NCBI GenBank assembly: GCA_964466705.1
Contig: CAYXSM010000014.1
Span: 28,028 to 92,027, forward strand
Origin: an uncultured Rikenellaceae bacterium
Lineage (GTDB): Bacteria; Bacteroidota; Bacteroidia; Bacteroidales; VadinHA17
Reading direction: 5' to 3'
Length of the DNA: 64,000 nt
Shown here: positions 1 through 50,083 of the stretch, in pieces
How the letters are laid out: the number at the start of each line of letters is the position of its first letter
Position numbering within the stretch: position 1 is the first letter of the stretch
The notes under the pieces: model-generated
Seen by the model: the letters and a program-made list of their open reading frames with translations, nothing else
Database searches by the model: none
Told to the model about the DNA's origin: nothing
Translations under genes and position numbers: made by a program

Positions 1-1826
1 CCCGGCGGCGGCTCCTCATGGTGGGTGTACCGTGGCAGGGGATCGTAGCCGGCCTCTTCAAATGTGGTTGCATAGAGTTCTATTTTTCCGGTAGGGGTAT
101 AAAATTCCACATTCTCGCCCGGCGCAAAATAAAGATCCTCATAAGGTCTTTCAAAAGTTTTGACTCCCAGTTTCATCATCTCATCAAGGCTGCTTCCCAC
201 CTGTTTCAGCTGCCAGTCGAGCTGGTCTTCTATCTTTTCAAAGGGAAAGTAATCGGCTACTCCCAGTCTTTTTGCCAGTTCACGGGCCATCCAGTATGAT
301 GGTTTTGTATTGTACATTGGTTCTGCAGCCGGGGCTCTGAGGGCTATCTGAGGTTTACGGTGCGGTCCGGTTCGTATCTCATCAAAGCGTTCAAGGTATG
401 TGCATTCCGGCAGTACTACGTCTGCCCAGCCCGTGATCTCCATAGGCATGGTATCGATCACTACAAGAAGCTGCAGGGCCTGTATGGCATTCAGCGTATT
501 TTCCTGATTAGGCAGTGTCTCAATCAGGTTGGTCCCGTTGACTATCCATCCCTGAAACTGGCAGTGGCGGCTGGGATCAGGCACAGTGGCATCGCAAAGG
601 CCATTGGCCAGTACAGAATCAGCAAGTTTATACAGATCGGGAAACTCAGTCCTCCATGATCTCTTTGGCTCCGGGTAAGGAGGATGAGGAGGTTCAGGAA
701 GCTCAAGAAACTCCGGACGGTAGAACCCTCCCCTTCGTCCCCAGGATCCGAGCAGGGCGTTGAGTATGGCCACAGCCCTCAGTCTCTGGGTGTCGTCACC
801 GTACCAGGTCACATGACGGCCTGGGTGGATTATAACAGCCGGTGATGCGTTGGCCATCTCTCGTGCAGTTTCGCGGATGATTGTCGGATCAATGGTTGTT
901 ATTCCGTAAGCCCATTCCGGTGTCATGTTCCTGACATGTTCCCTGAGATATTCAAAACCGTAAGTATATTTTTCGACATAAGCTTTGTCGTACATTTCTT
1001 GGGTTATGATGACATTGATCCAGGCCAGCAGAAGGGCAAGGTCAGTAGCCGGCTTTATCGGAAGCCAGTATTTTGATTTTCCTGCCGCGGTTGAATATCG
1101 CGGGTCGACAGTTATTATGGTGGCTCCCTTGTCGATGGCGTCTGACATCTCCTGAACCTGTCCGTTGTGCATGTTCTCGCCAATATGGCTTCCTATCAGG
1201 ACCAGGCATTCCGTATCCCTTATATCTGTTCTTTCAGGACTCTCGACAGTCTCGCCGAATGTAGCCTGGAAGGCCACTTCGCGCGGACCGCGGCATTGGG
1301 CGTAGGAGGGTGCGGCTACATGCGGGGAGCCAAGGGCACGGAGCAGGGTTGAAAAATATTTTCCGCCCGATCCGTGGGTGAAAAGGGCCATACATTCGGG
1401 CCCGTGTTCTGCCGAAATGATCTTTATTTTTTCGGCTATATAATCAAAGGCTTCCTCCCATGTTGCTTCCCTGAATGTTTGTTTGCCGCGTTCCTCGGTT
1501 CGGATGAGCGGAGTCCTCAAACGGTCATCATCATAGTACATACCGATCCCTCCTGTCCCCCTGGGACACAGACGGCCGTTACAGTTCAGATCCTCCGTGT
1601 TGCCGATGATCTTCCTGATAGCTCCTTTATCATCCCTGTAGACCCACCCCGCGCACTTCCAGAAGCACACCTCACAGTATGTGGGGATACGGCGAAGCAT
1701 ATCGCCCGCAGATTCAGAGAGAGTGTCGCCCGGTCCGCGCGCCAGAAGCCTGAAGCCTGCCGCACCGGCCATGGCAGCTCCTGCCCCGATGGCAGAGATC
1801 CTTATGAATTGCCTTCTTGTAGCCAT
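1..1826 (-). CDS. Molybdopterin (bis-MGD) oxidoreductase catalytic subunit, PsrA/PhsA-like; N-terminal 608 aa, C-terminus off the left edge
   Basis: Absent from the ORF track because its stop lies outside the window. Hand translation of the minus strand from ATG (1826-1824) stays open to base 1. Motifs: MATRRQFIRISAIGAGAAMAGAAG (twin-arginine signal), CEVCFWKCAGW..CNGRLCPRG (N-terminal FeS Cys motif), SYAQCRGPRE, ATIITVDPRYS, HPGRHVTWYGDD. Confidence 0.85.
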   Translation of the reverse strand, partial: MATRRQFIRISAIGAGAAMAGAAGFRLLARGPGDTLSESAGDMLRRIPTYCEVCFWKCAGWVYRDDKGAIRKIIGNTEDLNCNGRLCPRGTGGIGMYYDDDRLRTPLIRTEERGKQTFREATWEEAFDYIAEKIKIISAEHGPECMALFTHGSGGKYFSTLLRALGSPHVAAPSYAQCRGPREVAFQATFGETVESPERTDIRDTECLVLIGSHIGENMHNGQVQEMSDAIDKGATIITVDPRYSTAAGKSKYWLPIKPATDLALLLAWINVIITQEMYDKAYVEKYTYGFEYLREHVRNMTPEWAYGITTIDPTIIRETAREMANASPAVIIHPGRHVTWYGDDTQRLRAVAILNALLGSWGRRGGFYRPEFLELPEPPHPPYPEPKRSWRTEFPDLYKLADSVLANGLCDATVPDPSRHCQFQGWIVNGTNLIETLPNQENTLNAIQALQLLVVIDTMPMEITGWADVVLPECTYLERFDEIRTGPHRKPQIALRAPAAEPMYNTKPSYWMARELAKRLGVADYFPFEKIEDQLDWQLKQVGSSLDEMMKLGVKTFERPYEDLYFAPGENVEFYTPTGKIELYATTFEEAGYDPLPRYTHHEEPPP

Positions 1827-2227: not shown

Positions 2228-3022
2228 TCACATAATGATTATCTGAAGTTCCCGGCCGTTCTCCTGCTCGAAAAGCCGTTTTGCCATCCGGGCTTTCTCC
2301 TCACTGAATGAAGGATCGATGGAGTGGGCTTTCATATATGATTCATATGCCCTGTCATACTGCCTGACATACATGAAATAATCCCCCTTTGAATCGTATA
2401 CATTCGGGTTCTTCGGATCAAGTTCGATATATCTGTCAAAGGCTTCTTTGGCCTTCTCTTCCTGGTTCAGATTAATGTACGCATACCCGAGCTGATTGTA
2501 AAACGGCGCCGGATTACCGGCGATGGTTATCGCCTTTTTGATGGTTTCAGTCATACCTTCAATGTCGCCATTAAGCGACTGAAAAGAAATTAGGTGGCTG
2601 TACGAATTGGGATCACCGGGGTAGAGATCCACGAGTTTCCTGCCAGGACCGGTAACATCCGCATCTCCGTTCCTCAGCCTGACCAGAGCTTCCTTCAGGA
2701 GCTCCTCCCCTTCGCTCAGCCTTGCTTTGCAGTTTATGGCAGCATATGAATACCTTCTGAAATTATCCCATGACTGGTTCATCAGATAATAAAGTGCCAG
2801 ATGATAATTTGCCATGAACAGATCCGGATCCTCCCTGAGGGCATCATTGAAGGTCTCTGTAGCCCTTTCAATATTGACGGCATCGTAATACTCAAGCGCT
2901 TTTTTATAAAGCGACAAAGCACTTTTGGATGCGGCGGTGACCGGCATAATCTTTCCGGAGGACTGAGAATACGCGATAACCCCGTATGATAAAAGAACCA
3001 ATGAAAATATCAATTTTTTCAT
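2228..3022 (-). CDS. Secreted tetratricopeptide-repeat protein
   Basis: 264-aa ORF. Signal peptide MKKLIFSLVLLSYGVIAYSQ. TPR-like helices (NYHLALYYL, LGYAYINLNQEEKAKEAFDRYIELDPKNP). Confidence 0.8.
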   Translation of the reverse strand: MKKLIFSLVLLSYGVIAYSQSSGKIMPVTAASKSALSLYKKALEYYDAVNIERATETFNDALREDPDLFMANYHLALYYLMNQSWDNFRRYSYAAINCKARLSEGEELLKEALVRLRNGDADVTGPGRKLVDLYPGDPNSYSHLISFQSLNGDIEGMTETIKKAITIAGNPAPFYNQLGYAYINLNQEEKAKEAFDRYIELDPKNPNVYDSKGDYFMYVRQYDRAYESYMKAHSIDPSFSEEKARMAKRLFEQENGRELQIIIM

Positions 3023-6391: not shown

Positions 6392-6799
6392 ATGAAACCA
6401 AAAAATGCCCAACTGAACCGGATCAGATGGATTGCCCGCATTACAGGCACCCTTCTGGCTGTTTTCATCCTCATCTTTGTATCGTTAAGCATTGTTGGTG
6501 AGGTAAAAGAAACTGGCTGCACTTACAGTCTGGCACAGATTCTGACGTTTATTTTCTGGGGAATTGCAATGCTAGGACTGCTGCTTGCACTCTGGAAAGA
6601 GGGACCTGGAGGAATAATCTCCCTGTCAGGACTTGCCATAATGTATATTGCCGGCTTATTTGAGCCCGAAGCCAATAAGAAGGCGATGCTTTGGGTTGTA
6701 ATAATACTGGCAATACCTTCATTTTTATATGTCTGTTACTGGATGGGAAATAAAAGAAGCCAGTCTAAAAAAAATGATCAGAGTTCACAGAGGCGATAG
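6392..6799 (+). CDS. Small integral membrane protein, unknown function
   Basis: The track ORF starts at GTG 6362; the first ATG at 6392 gives MKPKNAQLNRIRW. About 4 hydrophobic helices and a basic C-terminal tail. Confidence 0.6.
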   Translation: MKPKNAQLNRIRWIARITGTLLAVFILIFVSLSIVGEVKETGCTYSLAQILTFIFWGIAMLGLLLALWKEGPGGIISLSGLAIMYIAGLFEPEANKKAMLWVVIILAIPSFLYVCYWMGNKRSQSKKNDQSSQRR

Positions 6800-7065
6800 A
6801 AATTATCGGAACAGATCCGCATCAATTTAAACACATGTTTTTTAAACTCCTTCTGGTATCAGGGATTACAATCAGGCAATAGCTTTGTGCTTTTTTTTGG
6901 TTCAGTTCTTATTTGGCCGATCAGGAGGAATGAATTATACCCGGATTATATGGTTCGTTTTAAGACATTTTGAAACTGGACTAAAGCCATGCTCAGCTTT
7001 TCATCATCAATGCCGGATTTCCATCTGCTATGCCAATTAAAAAAATAATAATTCTGCCATGACAT

Positions 7066-7096
7066 TTTGCATATTTGTAAAAATAAAGTATGTTTG
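7066..7096 (+). promoter_or_regulatory. Bacteroidota-type promoter for the lyase leader
   Basis: TTTG (7066-7069), 19 nt, then TATGTTTG (7089-7096). This matches the -33 TTTG / -7 TAnnTTTG consensus with canonical spacing. Confidence 0.5.
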
Positions 7097-7117
7097 AGCA
7101 ATGATTTATAAGTAAAA

Positions 7118-7174
7118 ATGATCCTGAAGTTAAACATTGGAATCTATTATTACTTTTATTGCAACAGGAAATAA
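7118..7174 (+). CDS. Candidate 18-aa leader peptide MILKLNIGIYYYFYCNRK
   Basis: ATG at 7118, TAA at 7172-7174. Codons TAT TAT TAC TTT TAT at 7145-7159. It lies between the predicted promoter and the leader terminator. It is too short for the ORF track. Confidence 0.25.
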   Translation: MILKLNIGIYYYFYCNRK

Positions 7175-7224
7175 TGGTGAGTCCTGTTTTATGAAATGTT
7201 TATTATATCAAAACTGAAAAATAC

Positions 7225-7254
7225 GGCTTGCCCTGGAAACGGCAAGCCTTTTTT
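7225..7254 (+). terminator. Intrinsic terminator-like hairpin inside the 5' leader of the lyase gene
   Basis: GGCTTGCC (7225-7232), an 8-nt loop, GGCAAGCC (7241-7248), then TTTTTT (7249-7254). It ends 23 nt before the ATG at 7278. Confidence 0.6.
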
Positions 7255-7277
7255 AATATAAATACCAACAACCAATT

Positions 7278-8744
7278 ATGGAAAAAACTCATAAAAACAG
7301 TAAAGTAAAGTTTTTCAACGAACAGGATATACCTCTTGAAATGCATAAGGTAAGGGTTGTCCAGAAACTAAATCTCCTGCCGATTGAGGAGAGGAAGAAA
7401 GCGATGGAAGAAGCAGGATTCAACACCTTCCTGTTGCAGAACAAGGATGTATTCCTCGATATGCTTACAGACAGTGGCACCAATGCCATGAGCGACAATC
7501 AGGTGGCGGCAATGATGGTAGCGGATGACTCTTATGCAGGTTCTTTCAGCTATTCAAAGCTTGAAAAAGCAATAAAAGACGTATTCAACCAGAAATATTT
7601 TCTGCCTGTTCACCAGGGAAGGGCTGCCGAACATATCATTTCACAGGTATTCATTCCAAAAGGGAACATTGTCGTGACAAACTATCATTTCACAACAACA
7701 AAAGCTCATATAGAGCTTGTTGGAGGCGTGGTTTATGAAGCATACCGCGATGAAGCCCTGAATATAAAGAGCGATCATCCTTTCAAAGGCAATATAGATA
7801 CTGATAAGCTCGAAGCTGTCATAAAGCAGTATGGTGCGGAAAAAATTGCATTCATCCGTTTTGAAGCCGGTACAAACCTGATCGGGGGACAACCGTTTTC
7901 AATGCAGAACATGAAAGATGTATGGCAGATATCCCGGAAACATGGAATAAAAGTCCTTATGGATACCAGTCTTATCAACGAGAATCTCTATTTCATCAAG
8001 ACCAGGGAGAAGGGGTATGAAAACCTCACGATAAAAGAGATATTGCATGAAATGATGAGTTATACCGATTTTTCGTATTTCTCCGGGCGTAAGGTAAGCT
8101 GTACGAGGGGAGGCGGTATCTGTACCAACGACAGGGAGATATATATGAAAATGAGAGATCTGGTTCCCTTGTTTGAGGGATTTCTTACATACGGTGGCAT
8201 GAGTGTCCGTGAGATCGAAGCAATGGCTGTCGGGCTGTATGAGACTCTTGATATGGATGTTATAAGTCAGTCACCCGGGTTCATCAAATATGCTGTTGAT
8301 TCATTCGTGGAAAAAGGCGTGCCTGTGGTAACTCCTGCCGGGGGCTTGGGATGCCATCTCGATGCAAGGGGTTTTATACCGCATGTTCCCCAGAGTGAAT
8401 ATCCGGCAGGCGCACTGGCAGCAGCACTTTATATAGCCTCCGGTGTAAGAGGAATGGAACGCGGAAGCATTTCAAGCGTCAGAGACGAAAATGGAAATGA
8501 TATCCCGGCGGATGTTGAGCTGCTTCGTCTGGCATTTCCAAGAAGGGTATTCACCCTGTCGCAGGTCAAGTATATGGAAGACAGGGTAAACTGGCTGTAT
8601 GAGAACAGGAACCTTATAGGAGGACTGGAATGGATCGAGGAACCTCCCGTGCTAAGATTCTTTGTGGGAAAACTTAAAGCCAAGACAAACTGGCCGGATA
8701 AGTTGGCAGAGAAATTCAGGAACGACTTCGGAGATTCACTGTAA
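7278..8744 (+). CDS. Beta-eliminating lyase, tryptophanase / tyrosine phenol-lyase family (PLP)
   Basis: 488 aa. FLDMLTDSGTNAMSDNQVAAMMVADDSYAGS, HQGRAAEHI, GGQPFS and the FSGRK (PLP-Lys region) align by eye with E. coli TnaA. I cannot tell Trp from Tyr specificity. Confidence 0.85.
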   Translation: MEKTHKNSKVKFFNEQDIPLEMHKVRVVQKLNLLPIEERKKAMEEAGFNTFLLQNKDVFLDMLTDSGTNAMSDNQVAAMMVADDSYAGSFSYSKLEKAIKDVFNQKYFLPVHQGRAAEHIISQVFIPKGNIVVTNYHFTTTKAHIELVGGVVYEAYRDEALNIKSDHPFKGNIDTDKLEAVIKQYGAEKIAFIRFEAGTNLIGGQPFSMQNMKDVWQISRKHGIKVLMDTSLINENLYFIKTREKGYENLTIKEILHEMMSYTDFSYFSGRKVSCTRGGGICTNDREIYMKMRDLVPLFEGFLTYGGMSVREIEAMAVGLYETLDMDVISQSPGFIKYAVDSFVEKGVPVVTPAGGLGCHLDARGFIPHVPQSEYPAGALAAALYIASGVRGMERGSISSVRDENGNDIPADVELLRLAFPRRVFTLSQVKYMEDRVNWLYENRNLIGGLEWIEEPPVLRFFVGKLKAKTNWPDKLAEKFRNDFGDSL

Positions 8745-8884: not shown

Positions 8885-10063
8885 TCATTGTCCCGGCTTT
8901 TGCACCTCTGAATCATATTCCCCAAGGTTCAGCGGATATTTTCCATACTCCCTTACGATCTTAACAATGTAGTCATACGTCTTGCCGGCAACACCGCCTG
9001 AGACTGAGTGGTCGGACTGGAAAATATAGCCTCCTCCCTTTGCAGCATTGAGCTTTCTGAGTGTTTCACGTTTTATCAGATCAAGGTCATTTGTCTCCCA
9101 CACCAGTATGTCATTGTTTCCGCAATAACCCATTCTGTTCCCAAACACCTTCTTCAGGTTTATGGCATCCATGCCCGCCTTGACCTCAAGCGGATTATAG
9201 GCATCAAGTCCCATAATGGCAAAGTCGTCAAGAATTGCGTTAACATTTCCGCATCCGTGATAAATTACGGGAAGTCCGTTTTCATGGCAAATATCAATCA
9301 TTTTTTTTACCCATGGCCGGAAGTATTTACGCCAGTAATCAGGATCGAACAGCAAAGAATGTTTATAGGCCACGTCCCCCCAGATTACAAAACCATCAAG
9401 AAGTCCGTCGGCTGCCTTTATTTGTGCTCTGGCGGAATCGGCATAGAACCGGCCGATCCTGTTGATGACATCACCAAGTCTTTCAGGATACATTCCTATC
9501 CAGAACAGAAAATTTTCCTGACCGACAAGGCGGGTGAGACATTCGGAACATTCAATAATACTTCCGTAAACAGGGAAATCCGGTCTTAGCTTATTGACTG
9601 TTACTATCCAGGGAGGTGAATTGCGTACAAATCCGTCCCCGACACCTGCAATCTGATTGTCACCTGCTGAAAAAAACCTTCTCGGATCGGCAGGATCATC
9701 AAATACGAGTCCTTCAAGTTTTTCTATTGTGTCAATTTCAAAAGACAACCATTCAGGCATTGGTGAGTCAAACTTTTTTCTGATGGTAGCAAGGAAACCA
9801 GTTTTAATTATCACTTCTTCACTGTTCTCGCGGAGAGTTTCGAATGGTCTGATAAAAGGATCCATATTGGGGGTAGTAACTATCCAGTCAAGATCATAAT
9901 AATAATACGGGTCAGCATCAGCCGGGAGTCCTAACTCATTTCGCCATCTGTCAGTAAAGCTTCCCCAGAAGAAATCACTGATTGGAACCCTGTCAGGTTC
10001 CTGGTGATGCAATGCTTTATTCATCCGTTCAAGCTTGGCAAGACAGGTTGTTGTACGTTCCAT
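8885..10063 (-). CDS. Uroporphyrinogen-decarboxylase (URO-D) family protein
   Basis: 392 aa. LPVIYHGCGNVNAILDDFAIMGLDAYNPLE and YIFQSDHSV are typical of URO-D/MtaA-like TIM barrels. Confidence 0.75.
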   Translation of the reverse strand: MERTTTCLAKLERMNKALHHQEPDRVPISDFFWGSFTDRWRNELGLPADADPYYYYDLDWIVTTPNMDPFIRPFETLRENSEEVIIKTGFLATIRKKFDSPMPEWLSFEIDTIEKLEGLVFDDPADPRRFFSAGDNQIAGVGDGFVRNSPPWIVTVNKLRPDFPVYGSIIECSECLTRLVGQENFLFWIGMYPERLGDVINRIGRFYADSARAQIKAADGLLDGFVIWGDVAYKHSLLFDPDYWRKYFRPWVKKMIDICHENGLPVIYHGCGNVNAILDDFAIMGLDAYNPLEVKAGMDAINLKKVFGNRMGYCGNNDILVWETNDLDLIKRETLRKLNAAKGGGYIFQSDHSVSGGVAGKTYDYIVKIVREYGKYPLNLGEYDSEVQKPGQ

Positions 10064-11761: not shown

Positions 11762-13153
11762 ATGATCCAACAGCGAAGTCTTGCAAGAACACTCGGACTG
11801 GGTTATGTAATAATCTTTGTCTTTGCAAATATCATTGGTTCAGGAGTGTACAAGAAGATTGCACCCATGGCTGCCGGGCTCCAATCATCCACATGGATAC
11901 TGATTGCATGGACAGCAGCCGGCGCAATCACACTTTTCGGTGCCCTGAGCAATGCCGAGCTGGCCGGTATGCTGGCTGACACCGGCGGGGAGTACGTCTA
12001 TCTTAAAAAAGTCTACAACCGATTCTTTTCCTTTCTCTATGGCTGGTCCCTGTTTACGGTAATACAGTCGGCCACCATATCATCGCTGGCATATGTCTTT
12101 GTTCAGTCGCTGAAAAGTATCCTGCCTTTGCCTGATTTATTTTCATCATTGCAGGATATTACTATCGGGGGTGTCTTCTTCCCTTTCCATGATTTCGGGA
12201 TCAAGCTTACTGCAATATTGATTATAATGGCGCTGACATTTCTCAACATGTCGGGACTGAAGAGCGGGGCCCGGGTTAACAAAGCCCTGTTCTTCATTGT
12301 CTGTGCAGGTCTGGCGGTGATTATTGCATTTGGACTGTTCAACGTATCCCGCGGCCATACAGAAATCTTTGACCTCAGGAGCCTGAAGGGAGGGTCTGTT
12401 AATGTCTCTTCATTCATGACAGCTATGCTGGCAGCTTTCTGGGCATACCAGGGATGGGTCTCGACAGGCTTCATAGGAGGAGAAATAAAAGATGCACGGC
12501 GTAATATTCCCAAAGGAATCATCATTGGTGTTTTTGCAATAACAATAATCTATCTGCTGGTCAACTATTCCTACCTGGCAGTCATGTCGATCCCTGACCT
12601 GGTGAGTGTGCATGAAGCAGGCAATCAGGTTGCCGCCATTGAGATGGTAAGAAGCCTCCGTATAGAAGGAGGCGTACTTTTCATATCATCGCTTATACTG
12701 GTATCGACCCTGGGTTGCCTTAATGCAAGTATTCTGACAGGCTCCAGACCCTATTATGCAATGTCGCGGGAGGGGCTTTTCTTTTCAGGCATCGGGAAGC
12801 TCAATAATCACAATGTGCCTGGCAACTCCCTGCTGTGGCAGGGAATATGGGCATCTGTACTTGTGTTGTCAGGCAACTTTGACCAATTGACCGACATGCT
12901 CATCTTTGCCGTTTACATATTCTACGGAGCCGCGGCCACGGGAGTTTTCATACTGCGCCGCAGGATGCCGGATGCGCACCGGCCGTACAAAACCTGGGGC
13001 TACCCGGTCGTAACGGCAATATTTGTGCTTTTCTGTGCCGGATTGTTCATAAATACCATCATAACGAGGCCCCGGGAAGCCCTGATAGGTCTTTCCCTTA
13101 TCATGGCAGGCATACCGGTCTATTTTCTGTTCCGCAAGAGGCACAAGCTGTAA
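11762..13153 (+). CDS. APC-family amino acid permease
   Basis: 463 aa with about 12 TM segments. N-terminal LGLGYVIIFVFANIIGSGVYKK is typical of the APC superfamily. Confidence 0.85.
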   Translation: MIQQRSLARTLGLGYVIIFVFANIIGSGVYKKIAPMAAGLQSSTWILIAWTAAGAITLFGALSNAELAGMLADTGGEYVYLKKVYNRFFSFLYGWSLFTVIQSATISSLAYVFVQSLKSILPLPDLFSSLQDITIGGVFFPFHDFGIKLTAILIIMALTFLNMSGLKSGARVNKALFFIVCAGLAVIIAFGLFNVSRGHTEIFDLRSLKGGSVNVSSFMTAMLAAFWAYQGWVSTGFIGGEIKDARRNIPKGIIIGVFAITIIYLLVNYSYLAVMSIPDLVSVHEAGNQVAAIEMVRSLRIEGGVLFISSLILVSTLGCLNASILTGSRPYYAMSREGLFFSGIGKLNNHNVPGNSLLWQGIWASVLVLSGNFDQLTDMLIFAVYIFYGAAATGVFILRRRMPDAHRPYKTWGYPVVTAIFVLFCAGLFINTIITRPREALIGLSLIMAGIPVYFLFRKRHKL

Positions 13154-48965: not shown

Positions 48966-49832
48966 CTATTTCTTCTTTTTATGAAATTCGGGTTCTTTTG
49001 GGAATATCTCTTCTCTTATCTGCCATAACTCTTCGGGAGTATCTATATCCGGGTCGACTTTAACCAGCAAAACCGGACTCAGCCCTTTGTCAGGATGTTG
49101 AATGTTATTGGATTTTTGATTCAGTATTTTTTTTGAAGCTCCGACAACGAACTGCTCCGATCTGTCAACAACATATCCACTCAGGGTTCCTTTACTGTTC
49201 AGAGTCAGATAATTGCTGAATATTTCCTTGCGAGTCAGATAAATCTCGCCCCTGAAAAACTTTCCCACACTAATCTGAACAGTGACTCCGGGATGCCCGT
49301 CGTTATCAGGATCTGTTAAATTGGGATCATTGGGATCCGTCGAAAGGGGTTTCATTGGATCTCCCTCAATTCCCAGAAGGCTGGGGCTTTCTGGCCTGTA
49401 AATATGCCAGGCTCCATCTTTTTGATATAATTCAACTTCCTGAACCCTGGGTTTTATTGCCTGGACAGCTTCATCACTGAATAACGATTTAGCATTCTTT
49501 CTGCTTAACTTTTGCTCTGCATGCACAAACCGGTCCAATTGCATAAGTTTGCCGTCCTCCAGGTAAAAATCAGTAAATCCGTATGAAATGATAAAGGTAC
49601 GCATGGTCGTTCTGGTTGTGGTGTCTTCATATGCCACCACATCATAGTGTGCATAATGGCCTGCAACCGCTTCTTTTGCACTTTCGGGGTCTTGCAGCTT
49701 CGACGTGTCAGCTTCTGCCTGTTCAAAGACATACAAAGGCGATTCAGGCCAATCCAATGGCCGTGAACAGGAATACAGTATAAATATAATGACCAGAAAT
49801 ACCGAATATAGCCAACTACCTTTTTGCATCAT
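48966..49832 (-). CDS. Hypothetical lipoprotein
   Basis: ATG at 49832 (MMQKGSWLYSVFLVIIFILYSCS lipobox). No recognised motif. Confidence 0.6.
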   Translation of the reverse strand: MMQKGSWLYSVFLVIIFILYSCSRPLDWPESPLYVFEQAEADTSKLQDPESAKEAVAGHYAHYDVVAYEDTTTRTTMRTFIISYGFTDFYLEDGKLMQLDRFVHAEQKLSRKNAKSLFSDEAVQAIKPRVQEVELYQKDGAWHIYRPESPSLLGIEGDPMKPLSTDPNDPNLTDPDNDGHPGVTVQISVGKFFRGEIYLTRKEIFSNYLTLNSKGTLSGYVVDRSEQFVVGASKKILNQKSNNIQHPDKGLSPVLLVKVDPDIDTPEELWQIREEIFPKEPEFHKKKK

Positions 49833-50083
49833 ACTTATGAGAGCATAGCATGGTTTCAGCAAATCTATTTAAAAGTCTCTTCATTTCCAAACCTTTAGCT
49901 TACATACCTGAGTTGATCCGCAGACGAGGTAATGGATAGGGCTGGTAAAGATGGAAATAAGCATTGGGAAATACAATTCCATTATATGACCCTTACATTT
50001 TTAATTGTATTTTCTGTCGAACTAATACGCCATTGAATCTGAGAGACACGATTTTACAATGTTGGTGAGGTCCCAAAATAAAC

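Follow-up and report, generated by a model that had tools for sequence, protein, structure and literature searches.

The stretch of DNA analysed here (the window, 64,000 nt) belongs to an uncultured Rikenellaceae bacterium and corresponds to positions 28,028-92,027 of contig CAYXSM010000014.1, forward strand (assembly GCA_964466705.1). All coordinates given below are positions within this window. The plus strand carries a gene for a beta-eliminating lyase of the tyrosine phenol-lyase (TPL) type, preceded by a compact leader that contains a promoter, a short open reading frame (ORF) with a run of tyrosine codons, a first hairpin and an intrinsic terminator (Table 1). The promoter follows the TTTG/TAnnTTTG pattern, which we take to be the Bacteroidetes promoter consensus, and the leader ORF starts 21 nt past its -7 box. 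Hairpin 1 is formed by AACAGGA (7163-7169) and TCCTGTT (7182-7188) over 7 bp, with the stop codon of the leader ORF (7172-7174) in its loop, and its 3' arm overlaps region 2, the antiterminator. The intrinsic terminator has an 8-bp stem with six G-C pairs followed by T6, and 23 nt separate this T-tract from the lyase ATG. A preliminary description of this DNA had listed the promoter, the mini-ORF, the hairpin and the terminator, and all four are present as it had placed them. Its remark that no plus-strand gene ends near the terminator holds as well, the closest plus-strand ORF upstream of the leader terminating at 6799. A function as terminator of a minus-strand or upstream gene was rejected, because no such gene is present and the upstream genes vary among loci.

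Table 1. Features of the lyase leader and the regulated gene, in window coordinates
Feature	Position	Strand	Details
Bacteroidetes-type promoter	7066..7096	+	-33 TTTG 7066-7069, N19, -7 box TATGTTTG 7089-7096
Leader ORF	7118..7174	+	18 codons plus stop; peptide MILKLNIGIYYYFYCNRK, then stop
Putative regulatory codon run	7145..7159	+	TAT TAT TAC TTT TAT = Y10 Y11 Y12 F13 Y14
Region 1, hairpin 1 5' arm AACAGGA	7163..7169	+	within the final leader codons; partner 7182-7188
Region 2, predicted antiterminator	7176..7190	+	core GGTGAGTC 7176-7183 with 7225-7232; extension UGUUUU 7185-7190 with AAAAUA 7218-7223
Region 3, terminator 5' arm GGCTTGCC	7225..7232	+	common to terminator and antiterminator helices
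Region 4, terminator 3' arm	7241..7254	+	GGCAAGCC 7241-7248 plus T6 7249-7254
Putatively regulated gene, TPL-type beta-eliminating lyase	7278..8744	+	488 aa

The lyase scores 170 bits against the Pfam family Beta_elim_lyase (PF01212) and passes the cutoff of the broad NCBIfam 'tryptophanase' subfamily PRK13238 (596.5 bits, cutoff 285). Against the TPL equivalog TIGR02618 it reaches 486.5 bits, which is below the cutoff of 720.7, and against the TnaA equivalogs 378-413 bits. Its top PDB matches are TPLs (423 bits, compared to 346 bits for tryptophanase), and its clade is a divergent one with approximately 50% identity to characterised TPLs. Residues T139, M393, R395, F461 and F462 of the lyase align with T124, M379, R381, F448 and F449 of Citrobacter freundii TPL, and K272, the tyrosine of DDSYAGS and the arginine of PRRVFT align with K257 (the PLP lysine) and the catalytic residues Y71 and R404 of that enzyme. 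The TMRFF residue pattern is found in all homologues examined. Tryptophanases carry Asp, Ile and His at the positions of Thr124, Arg381 and Phe448, respectively. The roles of Thr124 and Arg381 in TPL have been covered elsewhere (PMC10170061). The TPL residues T139, R395 and F461 at the substrate-specific positions support the assignment of the lyase to the tyrosine phenol-lyase type (EC 4.1.99.2) and not to the tryptophanases, in agreement with the phenol-lyase function that the preliminary description had suspected. As these residues are TPL-specific, the regulatory codon would match the substrate of the enzyme.

In the window alone, the promoter pattern has two matches versus 1.28 expected, and 5-codon windows with at least four Tyr are seen three times versus approximately 1.2 expected in 128 k positions, neither of which is above chance. 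The z-score of the leader fold energy (-1.76) is likewise unimpressive. The leader elements are judged to be real on account of their recurrence upstream of orthologous lyases at 18 loci, and not on single-window statistics. At these 18 distinct loci, 17 of which lie outside the window and carry homologous leader ORFs, the lyase is preceded by a promoter, an ORF of 18-27 codons with a Tyr run from about codon 10 and a terminator. The loci belong to two separate lyase clades, in neither of which a sampled member lacks the leader (12/12 and 6/6). CAVUVD010000002.1 and CAVTSB010000001.1 are examples of leader-bearing MAG sequences. In the alignment, a TAnnTTTG box and an upstream TTTG stand at the equivalent position in nearly all orthologous leaders. 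A chance AT-rich ORF beside an ordinary terminator would be compatible with the promoter pattern and the 4-of-5 Tyr window being within chance in the window alone, but is effectively refuted by the 18 loci, the two clades, the synonymous variation, a compensatory change in the terminator and the fixed spacings, and its probability is negligible. The earlier caution that TAT and TTT runs may arise by chance in AT-rich DNA thus holds for the Tyr run in the window alone, but does not extend to its conservation across 18 loci.

The conservation comparison that had been suggested for the mini-ORF, its Y/F run and the terminator was carried out over these loci. Tyr runs of at least two codons, usually 4-7, which start at codon 7-12, are present in 15/18 leaders of type 1 as well as in three leaders of type 2, a second architecture that lacks the terminator of type 1. 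The N-termini of the leader peptides are of at least two kinds that are unrelated to each other, M(G)I.KLNIGI and MKF.N...R, and the Tyr run, which occurs as YYYFY, YYYYY(Y), YYYHYYYY, HYYSF or FYYCC and in type 2 as YYYSY, is the sole peptide feature common to all leader types. Among more than 60 other TPL homologues, a Tyr-rich ORF was found upstream only in L066, L068 and L082. In the six codons preceding the Tyr run, differences between the clades amount to 18, 19 and 82 at codon positions 1, 2 and 3, respectively, a pattern which indicates that the leader ORF is translated and under peptide-level constraint. The KLNIGI segment before the run is kept as amino acids with mostly synonymous third-position changes, even though the lyases of the two clades are only about 65% identical. 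The occurrence of the ORF and its Tyr run upstream of orthologous lyases in two clades therefore argues for the Tyr-rich regulatory mini-ORF proposed in the preliminary description.

The RNA elements of the leader are conserved to different degrees. The terminator is 100% paired over the 18 leaders and includes one fully compensatory pair (G-C in 12, A-U in 6), and the helix of hairpin 1 is 71.7% paired with two-sided changes in 4/7 pairs. The preliminary description had found no convincing antiterminator pairing; one is provided by GGTGAGTC at 7176-7183, which pairs with GGCTTGCC at 7225-7232. The motif GGYRRGYC is kept 35-44 nt upstream of the terminator arm, and 87.5% of the cells of the antiterminator are paired over the 18 leaders versus 19-56% when the partner is slid. 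The changes in this helix among the 18 leaders are one-sided and wobble-compatible only, with no double compensatory change, so that covariation of the antiterminator is not demonstrated and something else could account for its conservation. The minimum free energy structure of the full-length leader is the state with the terminator and hairpin 1 (-30.4 kcal/mol), and the antiterminator state has an energy of -20.2 kcal/mol.

The position of a translating ribosome is predicted to decide between these two states. When a ribosome is placed at the Tyr run of the window leader in a nascent-RNA fold, the antiterminator pairs with the 5' arm of the terminator at 8/8 positions, and with the ribosome at the stop codon at 0/8. 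This result is matched by 1/500 shuffles for the window leader and by 0/500 for six other leaders. Over the whole set, the antiterminator forms in 13/18 leaders with the ribosome at the last Tyr codon and is essentially gone with the ribosome at the stop. The antiterminator begins 11-17 nt past the last Tyr codon, or 11-22 nt when all 18 leaders are counted, just outside a stalled ribosome. Relative to the first base of the stop codon it begins at -19 to +5 nt, where a terminating ribosome would cover it. The distance between the Tyr run and the stop codon itself varies from 2 to 11 codons. Coupling as in pyrBI, in which the ribosome melts the terminator, was rejected because the ORF ends at least 25 nt (approximately 50 nt in the window) before the terminator.

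The leader is best read, with a confidence that slightly outweighs doubt, as a ribosome-mediated (leader-peptide) transcription attenuator that controls the TPL gene, a reading that draws on the presence of the elements and on how they are conserved, complementary and spaced. Transcription would start from the TTTG/TATGTTTG promoter, with the 18-codon leader being translated behind the advancing RNA polymerase. A ribosome that clears the Tyr run and reaches the stop codon would cover GGUGAGUC (7176-7183), and after its release hairpin 1 would sequester the flank of GGUGAGUC, upon which the terminator (7225-7248) with its U6 would fold and the transcript would end 23 nt before the lyase ATG. 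The leading edge of a ribosome stalled in the Tyr run, however, would remain short of 7176, leaving GGUGAGUC-C-UGUUUU to pair with AAAAUA-C-GGCUUGCC (7218-7232), so that the terminator would be blocked and the lyase transcribed. The model predicts constitutive termination when GGTGAGTC is changed to CCTGAGTC. Both stalling as the trigger of the switch and the cause of the stall are what we infer from this arrangement, and the tyrosine responsiveness suggested in the preliminary description would probably consist of induction upon ribosome stalling in the Tyr run. Region 1 is covered only when the ribosome has come to the 3' end of the Tyr run. Stalling already at the first Tyr codon would allow hairpin 1 to form, which counts against this explanation.

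Five of the 18 leaders (L089, L093, L094, L001 and L002) deviate from the common plan, which counts against the attenuator reading. L089 and L093 have Cys, Gly and Ser codons in place of the Tyr run and TTG as start codon, and retain the terminator, hairpin 1 and much of the antiterminator; L094 retains the terminator and lacks the antiterminator motif; and in L001 and L002 the antiterminator motifs are weak. Preservation of RNA elements despite a decayed Tyr run in L089 and L093, the terminator without antiterminator in L094 and the missing double covariation in the antiterminator would all suit a genuine terminator-antiterminator switch that is run by an RNA-binding protein, a small ligand or the rate of transcription, with the mini-ORF being incidental or tuning translation or stability. 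This appears improbable given the coding-type substitution pattern in the leader ORF and the sharing of the Tyr run by otherwise different leaders, including the second architecture without this terminator. Furthermore, without a ribosome it is hard to see why the antiterminator keeps a fixed distance from the Tyr run when the stop position varies, and no Rfam riboswitch or protein-binding leader was matched.

The unit of leader and lyase is embedded among genes that vary from locus to locus, and these neighbours give no physiological clue. The leader is always co-oriented and directly 5' of the lyase despite these differing flanking genes, with a gap between terminator and lyase ATG of 24-38 nt that has neither a TTTG/TAnnTTTG motif (-7 box) nor room for a separate lyase promoter. 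The covariance model R1, for which the 18 leaders served as training set, recovered only the training copies and reverse-strand echoes of the terminator in the window and 96 loci (593 kb), and a regex scan likewise gave no further leader copies. These observations make it very improbable that the promoter, mini-ORF and terminator are a small gene in their own right, for an sRNA or a small hydrophobic protein, next to a lyase with a promoter of its own; in such a gene, the conserved antiterminator would moreover have no role. The idea does draw on the leader having its own promoter and a strong terminator, on the resemblance of the hydrophobic peptide with its basic tail to some small membrane peptides, and on the ability of attenuator-derived RNAs and peptides of other bacteria to work in trans (PMC6614838, PMC7298713). 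Of the two roles that the preliminary description had offered for the terminator, the end of a small RNA or a leader terminator, the latter is favoured by its conservation, by the competing antiterminator and by the lack of a separate lyase promoter motif in the gap.

The classical leader-peptide attenuators are those of amino-acid biosynthetic operons, represented by trpL, hisL, pheL and pheM of E. coli. These have been treated elsewhere (PMC1183508, PMC3082878). The present leader resembles the trp, his and phe attenuators in having a promoter-proximal short ORF with a codon run for one amino acid, and four RNA regions that would pair exclusively as 1:2 and 3:4 (terminator) or as 2:3 (antiterminator). 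As in those systems, a terminating ribosome at the stop would mask region 2, and the intrinsic terminator lies just before the structural gene. It differs in that the regulatory amino acid is tyrosine, in that the downstream gene is a single lyase known as catabolic instead of a biosynthetic operon or an aminoacyl-tRNA synthetase, and in that the host is a Shine-Dalgarno-less member of the Bacteroidales with a -33/-7 promoter. In addition, region 2 is overlapped by the 1:2 hairpin at its 3' flank only. Attenuator-like leaders have a precedent in Bacteroidetes, the Bacteroid-trp motif (RF01692; Weinberg et al. 2010, PMC2864571), which is also a cis-regulatory leader of an aromatic amino-acid pathway in this phylum, but has a different sequence and structure, precedes trp biosynthesis genes instead of a lyase and gave no cmscan match here at any of the thresholds listed. 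At gathering thresholds, an Rfam scan of the window and seven leader loci returned no leader family and a single tRNA, in L082. A permissive scan of 6700-7400 gave sub-threshold matches only, to Thr_leader (RF00506; 18.7 bits with a gathering threshold of 55, driven by the terminator), isrD and AaHKsRNA41.

To our knowledge, leader-peptide attenuation is known almost only from biosynthetic operons, mostly in Proteobacteria, and we know of no characterised attenuator with a Tyr run. A full-text literature search retrieved no paper in which a leader peptide or attenuator is connected with TPL or with tyrosine codons. Naville and Gautheret (2010) do not mention such a leader, and only generic predicted attenuators are given near tyrA (PMC1173090). 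Judging from the sequences compared, leader-peptide attenuation with tyrosine codons, or over a beta-eliminating lyase, therefore appears to be both real and new, no earlier version having been found. The element would constitute a family of cis-regulatory RNAs that comprises 18 members plus a second architecture and is absent from Rfam. Its phylum departs from the model systems in translation initiation and promoters. It also bears on the regulation of a phenol-forming (or phenol-consuming) TPL in uncultured Bacteroidales of anaerobic habitats, and microbial phenol production is relevant to gut-derived uraemic toxins.

The preliminary description had drawn an analogy with TnaC. The tnaC-tnaA and speFL-speF systems are similar in that a leader peptide precedes tnaA, which encodes a paralogous beta-eliminating lyase, or the gene of a different catabolic PLP enzyme, and stalling on the leader prevents premature termination, as is proposed here. 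TnaC and SpeFL, however, sense a free ligand by means of a specific nascent peptide with a defined stall codon and no codon run, and block Rho-dependent termination, whereas the present leader combines an RNA antiterminator with an intrinsic terminator, and has 4-7 Tyr codons in a run and a variable run-to-stop spacing. The TnaC residue pattern W-x3-D-x7-P is absent from the leader peptides. The analogy is not supported on these grounds, and TnaC-like arrest at the stop codon in particular is excluded by the spacing of 2-11 codons between run and stop.

A shortage of charged tRNA-Tyr would be the most parsimonious trigger of the stall by analogy, since every codon-run leader known to us senses a shortage of a charged tRNA. 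If so, the lyase would be made when tyrosine is scarce, which would be sensible only if the reversible enzyme makes tyrosine, from phenol, pyruvate and ammonia or from phenol and serine. The same RNA switch could also be operated by abundant tyrosine, with the nascent Tyr-rich peptide (KLNIGIYYYFY) and free L-tyrosine arresting the ribosome at the end of the run; a peptide resembling TnaC or SpeFL would then be coupled to an intrinsic terminator instead of Rho, and the lyase would be induced by its substrate. Such arrest, which we regard as rather unlikely, fits the induction of tpl by Tyr (PMC10170061) and of tnaA by Trp. It also agrees with the preservation of KLNIGI at the amino-acid level between the clades, with the start of the Tyr run at codon 10-11 in almost all leaders, and with region 1 being covered only at the 3' end of the run, as expected for a stall after Tyr incorporation. 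It is at odds with the runs of 3-8 cognate codons, which typify sensors of tRNA charging and not the known ligand-sensing arrest peptides, with the varying number and arrangement of the Tyr codons, with the presence of at least two unrelated N-terminal types, and with the variable run-to-stop distance in a leader without similarity to TnaC. The conservation of the KLNIGI peptide exceeds the needs of a pure codon-run sensor and counts against a shortage of charged tRNA-Tyr as the trigger.

Given the predicted sign of regulation, one has to choose between a starvation-induced tyrosine-salvage enzyme and a new ligand-sensing arrest peptide. Arrest by tyrosine would add a third case to TnaC and SpeFL, the two natural nascent peptides that sense small molecules, and the first with an intrinsic terminator. 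The classical reading, in which tRNA-Tyr runs short, would make TPL a starvation-induced enzyme that acts in vivo as a tyrosine synthase scavenging phenol. The tpl genes of Erwinia herbicola and Citrobacter freundii belong to the same enzyme family, and their expression is similarly tied to tyrosine status. In those species, control is exerted at the promoter by the activator TyrR with Tyr, CRP and IHF, and tpl is induced by Tyr (PMC10170061, PMC1173090), whereas the control predicted here is based on RNA and the ribosome, with a topology that predicts induction upon stalling at Tyr codons. Induction by Tyr shortage is opposite to the known enterobacterial induction of tpl by Tyr, which counts against the tRNA-Tyr explanation. 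The TPL reaction itself is reversible and is exploited for the production of Tyr and DOPA (PMC10170061). The Km values of the reverse reaction of the Erwinia enzyme are 1.1 mM for phenol, 12 mM for pyruvate and 20 mM for NH3 (PMC10170061), and such high values count against a tyrosine-making role.

The lyase gene encodes a product of 488 aa with the Beta_elim_lyase domain. Among the NCBIfam models, the product passes that of the broad 'tryptophanase' subfamily alone and falls below every equivalog cutoff, scoring higher with the equivalog model for tyrosine phenol-lyase (TPL, 486 bits) than with those for tryptophanase (378-413 bits). Among solved structures, its closest relatives are again tyrosine phenol-lyases (423 bits, compared to 346 bits for tryptophanases). 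In an alignment to the Citrobacter freundii TPL, residues T139, R395 and F461 correspond to Thr124, Arg381 and Phe448, three specificity positions at which tryptophanases carry Asp, Ile and His. Furthermore, M393 and F462 align with Met379 and Phe449, K272 with the PLP lysine 257 and the tyrosine of the DDSYAGS stretch with Tyr71. In TPL, Thr124 and Arg381 bind and activate the phenolic OH (PMC10170061). The T139/R395/F461-type pattern is present in all collected homologues (58-100% identical). These residues and the higher TPL scores support the phenol-lyase function guessed in the preliminary description, and from its sequence we would class the enzyme as a divergent tyrosine phenol-lyase. 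On the same strand, 3 kb downstream of the lyase, lies a gene for an amino-acid permease (AA_permease_2, 463 aa, 11762-13153), which is not conserved beside the lyase in other loci. In a leaderless relative (L097:1-2970, lyase 70% identical), an ACT-domain gene is followed by a class I/II aminotransferase gene and, 11 nt further on, by the start of the TPL gene; this gene order suggests an operon linking TPL with aromatic amino-acid transamination.

The promoter, mini-ORF, hairpin and terminator reported earlier upstream of the lyase are each present, with the closest plus-strand ORF upstream ending at 6799. The pattern TTTG-N18-20-TAnnTTTG matches twice in the window (1.28 expected), 5-codon stretches with at least four Tyr occur three times in six frames (~1.2 expected) and the leader folds no more than 1.76 sd better than its shuffles. 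Within the window alone the elements are statistically unremarkable, which justifies the earlier caveat on AT-richness, and the case therefore rests on the comparison between loci. The sole other exact promoter match (49860-49891, minus strand) is located at the 5' end of the minus-strand ORF 48966-49862 and overlaps its listed TTG start, so that the true start is probably further downstream. The sole other Tyr run, PYYYYD (9907-9921, minus strand), lies inside ORF 8885-10063, a URO-D/MtaA-like methyltransferase gene convergent with the lyase, and was taken as a chance control.

Features of the leader in the window and of deviating and second-type leaders in homologous loci (positions within the locus for the latter)
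Feature	Position	Strand	Remarks
Promoter	TTTG 7066-7069; TATGTTTG 7089-7096	+	19-nt spacer; sequence reading of 6400-7500
Leader ORF	7118-7174	+	MILKLNIGIYYYFYCNRK, then stop; ATG ATC CTG AAG TTA AAC ATT GGA ATC TAT TAT TAC TTT TAT TGC AAC AGG AAA TAA; sequence reading
Hairpin 1	AACAGGA 7163-7169; TCCTGTT 7182-7188	+	leader stop codon in loop
Terminator	GGCTTGCC 7225-7232; GGCAAGCC 7241-7248; T6 7249-7254	+	8 pairs, 6 G-C
Lyase ATG	7278	+	23 nt past T-tract
L089 leader	2842-2898		TTG start; TGT TGT TAT TTT ATT (CCYFI)
L093 leader	1343-1399		TTG start; TGT GGT TAT TCT ATT (CGYSI)
L094 leader	1345-1401		YNYFW; perfect 9-bp hairpin 1; weaker T-tract (TTTCTT tail)
L068 second-type uORF	2299-2358		lyase start 2498
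L066 second-type uORF	2375-2434		lyase start 2498
L082 second-type uORF	1299-1379		lyase start 1466

Seven full loci from a genome scan (Rikenellaceae/Bacteroidales MAGs), 80 more distant ones from a metagenome scan with clade alignment and eight further loci from exact-protein look-ups were compared. The leader unit of promoter, Tyr-rich ORF and terminator is found in 18 distinct loci and aligns well from promoter to T-tract, the sequence 5' of the promoter being unrelated between loci. In a neighbour-joining tree of the lyases the carriers form two separate clades, with the leader in 12 of 12 and 6 of 6 sampled members, and no leader was found in the intervening Prolixibacteraceae-like clade (75-80% identical) or in the human-gut clade. 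The peptides of the window clade (lyase 83-100% identical) are MILKLNIGIYYYFYCNRK, MILEFNIGIHYYSFINRKK, (GTG)IRKLNIGIYYYFYCYRNL, MIFTLNIGMYYYFYCSSDIGKS, MIVKLNIGIYYYFYCSRILW, MTFYFKTEIYYYFYRKKIW, MAFKLIFGFYYYFYCSSAKLVGRVV, MNNLLLIIGNNYYYCCRSSKVSPVV, MKFINHNERFYYCCRMKKVGPAVF and (GTG)TRGLNIHIYNYFWCNRI, in addition to two decayed versions; those of the distant clade (58-65%) are MCIVKLNIFIYYYYYYRE, MGIIKLNIGIYYYYYYSLLKIRKSCNI, MGIIKLNIGIYYYYYCWKI, MGIIRLNIGIYYYYYCRRKT, MKFRNNLHRYYYYYFMIPMVSQNME and MILSGCYYYHYYYYHGLPGVSQDW. Mini-ORF, Tyr run and terminator, for which a conservation check had been proposed, are thus kept 5' of orthologous lyases in both clades. Since the genes flanking the lyase vary by locus, the lyase is the sole constant partner of the leader, and a covariance model built from all 18 leaders found no further copy in the 593 kb searched, rest of the window included. 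Between-clade differences in the six codons that precede the Tyr run number 18, 19 and 82 at codon positions 1, 2 and 3 (Gly, for example, is GGA, GGT or GGC), a bias which argues that the leader ORF is translated and its peptide under constraint.

All 18 leaders have a completely (100%) paired terminator; at one pair the two clades differ by a full compensatory change, with GGCTTGCC/GGCAAGCC in one and GGCTTACC/GGTAAGCC in the other. The preliminary description had found no convincing antiterminator pairing; however, the terminator 5' arm also pairs with an 8-nt motif, GGYRRGYC, that copies the 3' arm while tolerating wobble. Its sequence is GGTGAGTC in the window (7176-7183) and GGTAAGTC in most of the remaining leaders, and in the window UGUUUU (7185-7190) extends the helix by pairing with AAAAUA (7218-7223). 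The motif lies 35-44 nt 5' of the terminator arm in every leader, separated by a spacer of unconserved sequence. Across the 18 leaders 87.5% of cells pair, compared to 19-56% with the partner slid by 1-3 columns; the changes are all one-sided (U-G to U-A, A-U to G-U) and thus fall short of strict covariation. Hairpin 1, the 7-bp hairpin described earlier, represents the 1:2 element, with 72% pairing across leaders and both-sided changes in four of its seven pairs. Nascent RNA ending with the terminator 5' arm was folded for two ribosome positions. With the ribosome at the last Tyr codon, masking the RNA as far as 13 nt beyond the first base of that codon, the antiterminator is predicted to form in 13 of 18 leaders (7-8 of its 8 pairs), and with the ribosome at the stop codon the terminator 5' arm is predicted to be unpaired or weakly paired. 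Dinucleotide shuffles equalled the real antiterminator once in 500 for the window and never for six other leaders. In the full-length RNA, terminator plus hairpin 1 is the MFE structure (-30.4 kcal/mol, compared to -20.2 for the antiterminator state), so that termination would be the default and read-through would need kinetic help.

A 6-codon ORF (7174-7194, ATG GTG AGT CCT GTT TTA TGA, MVSPVL) in TAATG overlap with the leader stop spans the antiterminator, and the leader frame itself crosses the motif as ..MVSQ.. in locus L060 and ..GVSQ.. in L084; these readings are probably a by-product of the conserved GGTRAGTC nucleotides and not coding. Within 7110-7155 of the window, predicted folds join the leader translation start (AAGUAAAAAUGAUCC) to the Tyr-run region (GGAAUCUAUUAUUACUU), and an equivalent 5' hairpin of other sequence (GCAAUGG/UUAUUGC) is seen in the distant-clade loci L038, L039 and L042. 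With weak energies (-6 to -10 kcal/mol) and A/U-rich partners, this hairpin may be chance.

The strongest argument for a putative control by the ribosome is the spacing. In leaders with a good motif, 11-17 nt separate the last Tyr codon from the antiterminator (11-22 nt in all 18), which places the latter just past the leading edge of a ribosome with this codon in the A site. Relative to the first base of the stop codon, the antiterminator begins at -19 to +5 nt and would therefore always be covered by a terminating ribosome or one on the last codons. The distance from Tyr run to stop varies from 2 to 11 codons; the run is thus coupled to the RNA switch, whereas for the stop codon it suffices to lie at or beyond the antiterminator. 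The terminator precedes the lyase ATG by 24-38 nt without a -33/-7 motif in between, so the lyase would be transcribed only through the terminator. Elements, conservation, complementarity and spacing are all visible in the aligned leaders, which by structural criteria classify as a leader-peptide transcription attenuator. We infer that ribosome stalling flips the switch: a ribosome stalled in the Tyr run would allow 2:3 (antiterminator) pairing and read-through into the lyase, whereas smooth translation would lead to 3:4 (terminator) pairing and termination. This 2:3 versus 3:4 logic is shared with the trp, his and phe attenuators. The TnaC/SpeFL arrest-peptide systems keep a fixed distance to the stall codon and terminate in a Rho-dependent way, whereas the leader has variable spacing and a canonical intrinsic terminator; the earlier comparison with TnaC was not borne out on either point. 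The leader matches no Rfam family, and in full-text literature searches neither a TPL leader nor a tyrosine-codon leader came up, in agreement with the preliminary description, which knew of no described case. We rate the regulatory amino acid, the target-gene class and the SD-less Bacteroidales host as new, and leader-peptide attenuation itself as a known kind.

As trigger of the stall we lean, by analogy, toward low charged tRNA-Tyr, the classical and parsimonious reading; in all codon-run leaders known to us the trigger is low charged cognate tRNA. Tyrosine shortage would in that case induce the lyase, a paradox for an enzyme whose known role is catabolic. In Erwinia and Citrobacter the tpl enzyme is catabolic and tyrosine-induced through TyrR (PMC10170061, PMC1173090). 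The paradox would resolve if the enzyme acted here as a tyrosine synthase (from phenol, pyruvate and NH3, or from phenol and serine). The TPL reaction is reversible and in industrial use, but for the substrates of the reverse reaction the Km values of the Erwinia enzyme are in the millimolar range (PMC10170061). A tyrosine-dependent nascent-peptide arrest would fit the physiology, the conservation of KLNIGI at the amino-acid level and the constant start of the Tyr run at codon 10-11, but we consider it rather unlikely, as the Tyr codons vary in number and order, the N-termini are of two unrelated types and codon runs in such peptides are without any precedent. The direction of regulation, by shortage as with low charged tRNA-Tyr or by tyrosine itself, is a point of interest.

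The expected conservation of the Tyr run holds for most orthologous leaders, but not for those of loci L089 and L093 (lyase 90-91% identical), where TAT has changed to TGT or GGT while the RNA elements, terminator and hairpin 1 among them, are kept. The run thus appears not to be absolutely required for the element to persist. The leader of L094 lacks the antiterminator motif (the lyases of all three loci are 88-91% identical), and in L001 and L002 the antiterminators are weak; these leaders look like decaying or re-tuned versions.

A second leader architecture precedes TPL genes on three contigs, L068, L066 and L082, which form a subclade of what we guess from contig names to be a termite-gut clade. 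The uORF peptides (MIFRTDFTRYYYSYFCPSV, MFFKFDSNRYFYSYLSPSL and MAITFHANCYYYSYLCPSPGNLPAIV) again carry a Tyr run from codon 10, and the contigs have TTGACA-type promoters and a AAGGAGAC Shine-Dalgarno sequence. The stop codon is overlapped or followed by a GCCCCTC/GAGGGGC hairpin, and a T-tract terminator is absent from these three leaders. The conserved TAC/TAT-TCC-TAT includes CUCCU/UUCCU, complementary to the lyase SD, which makes translational attenuation conceivable. The N-terminus of the second type resembles the MKF.N...RYYY type of loci L003 and L060.
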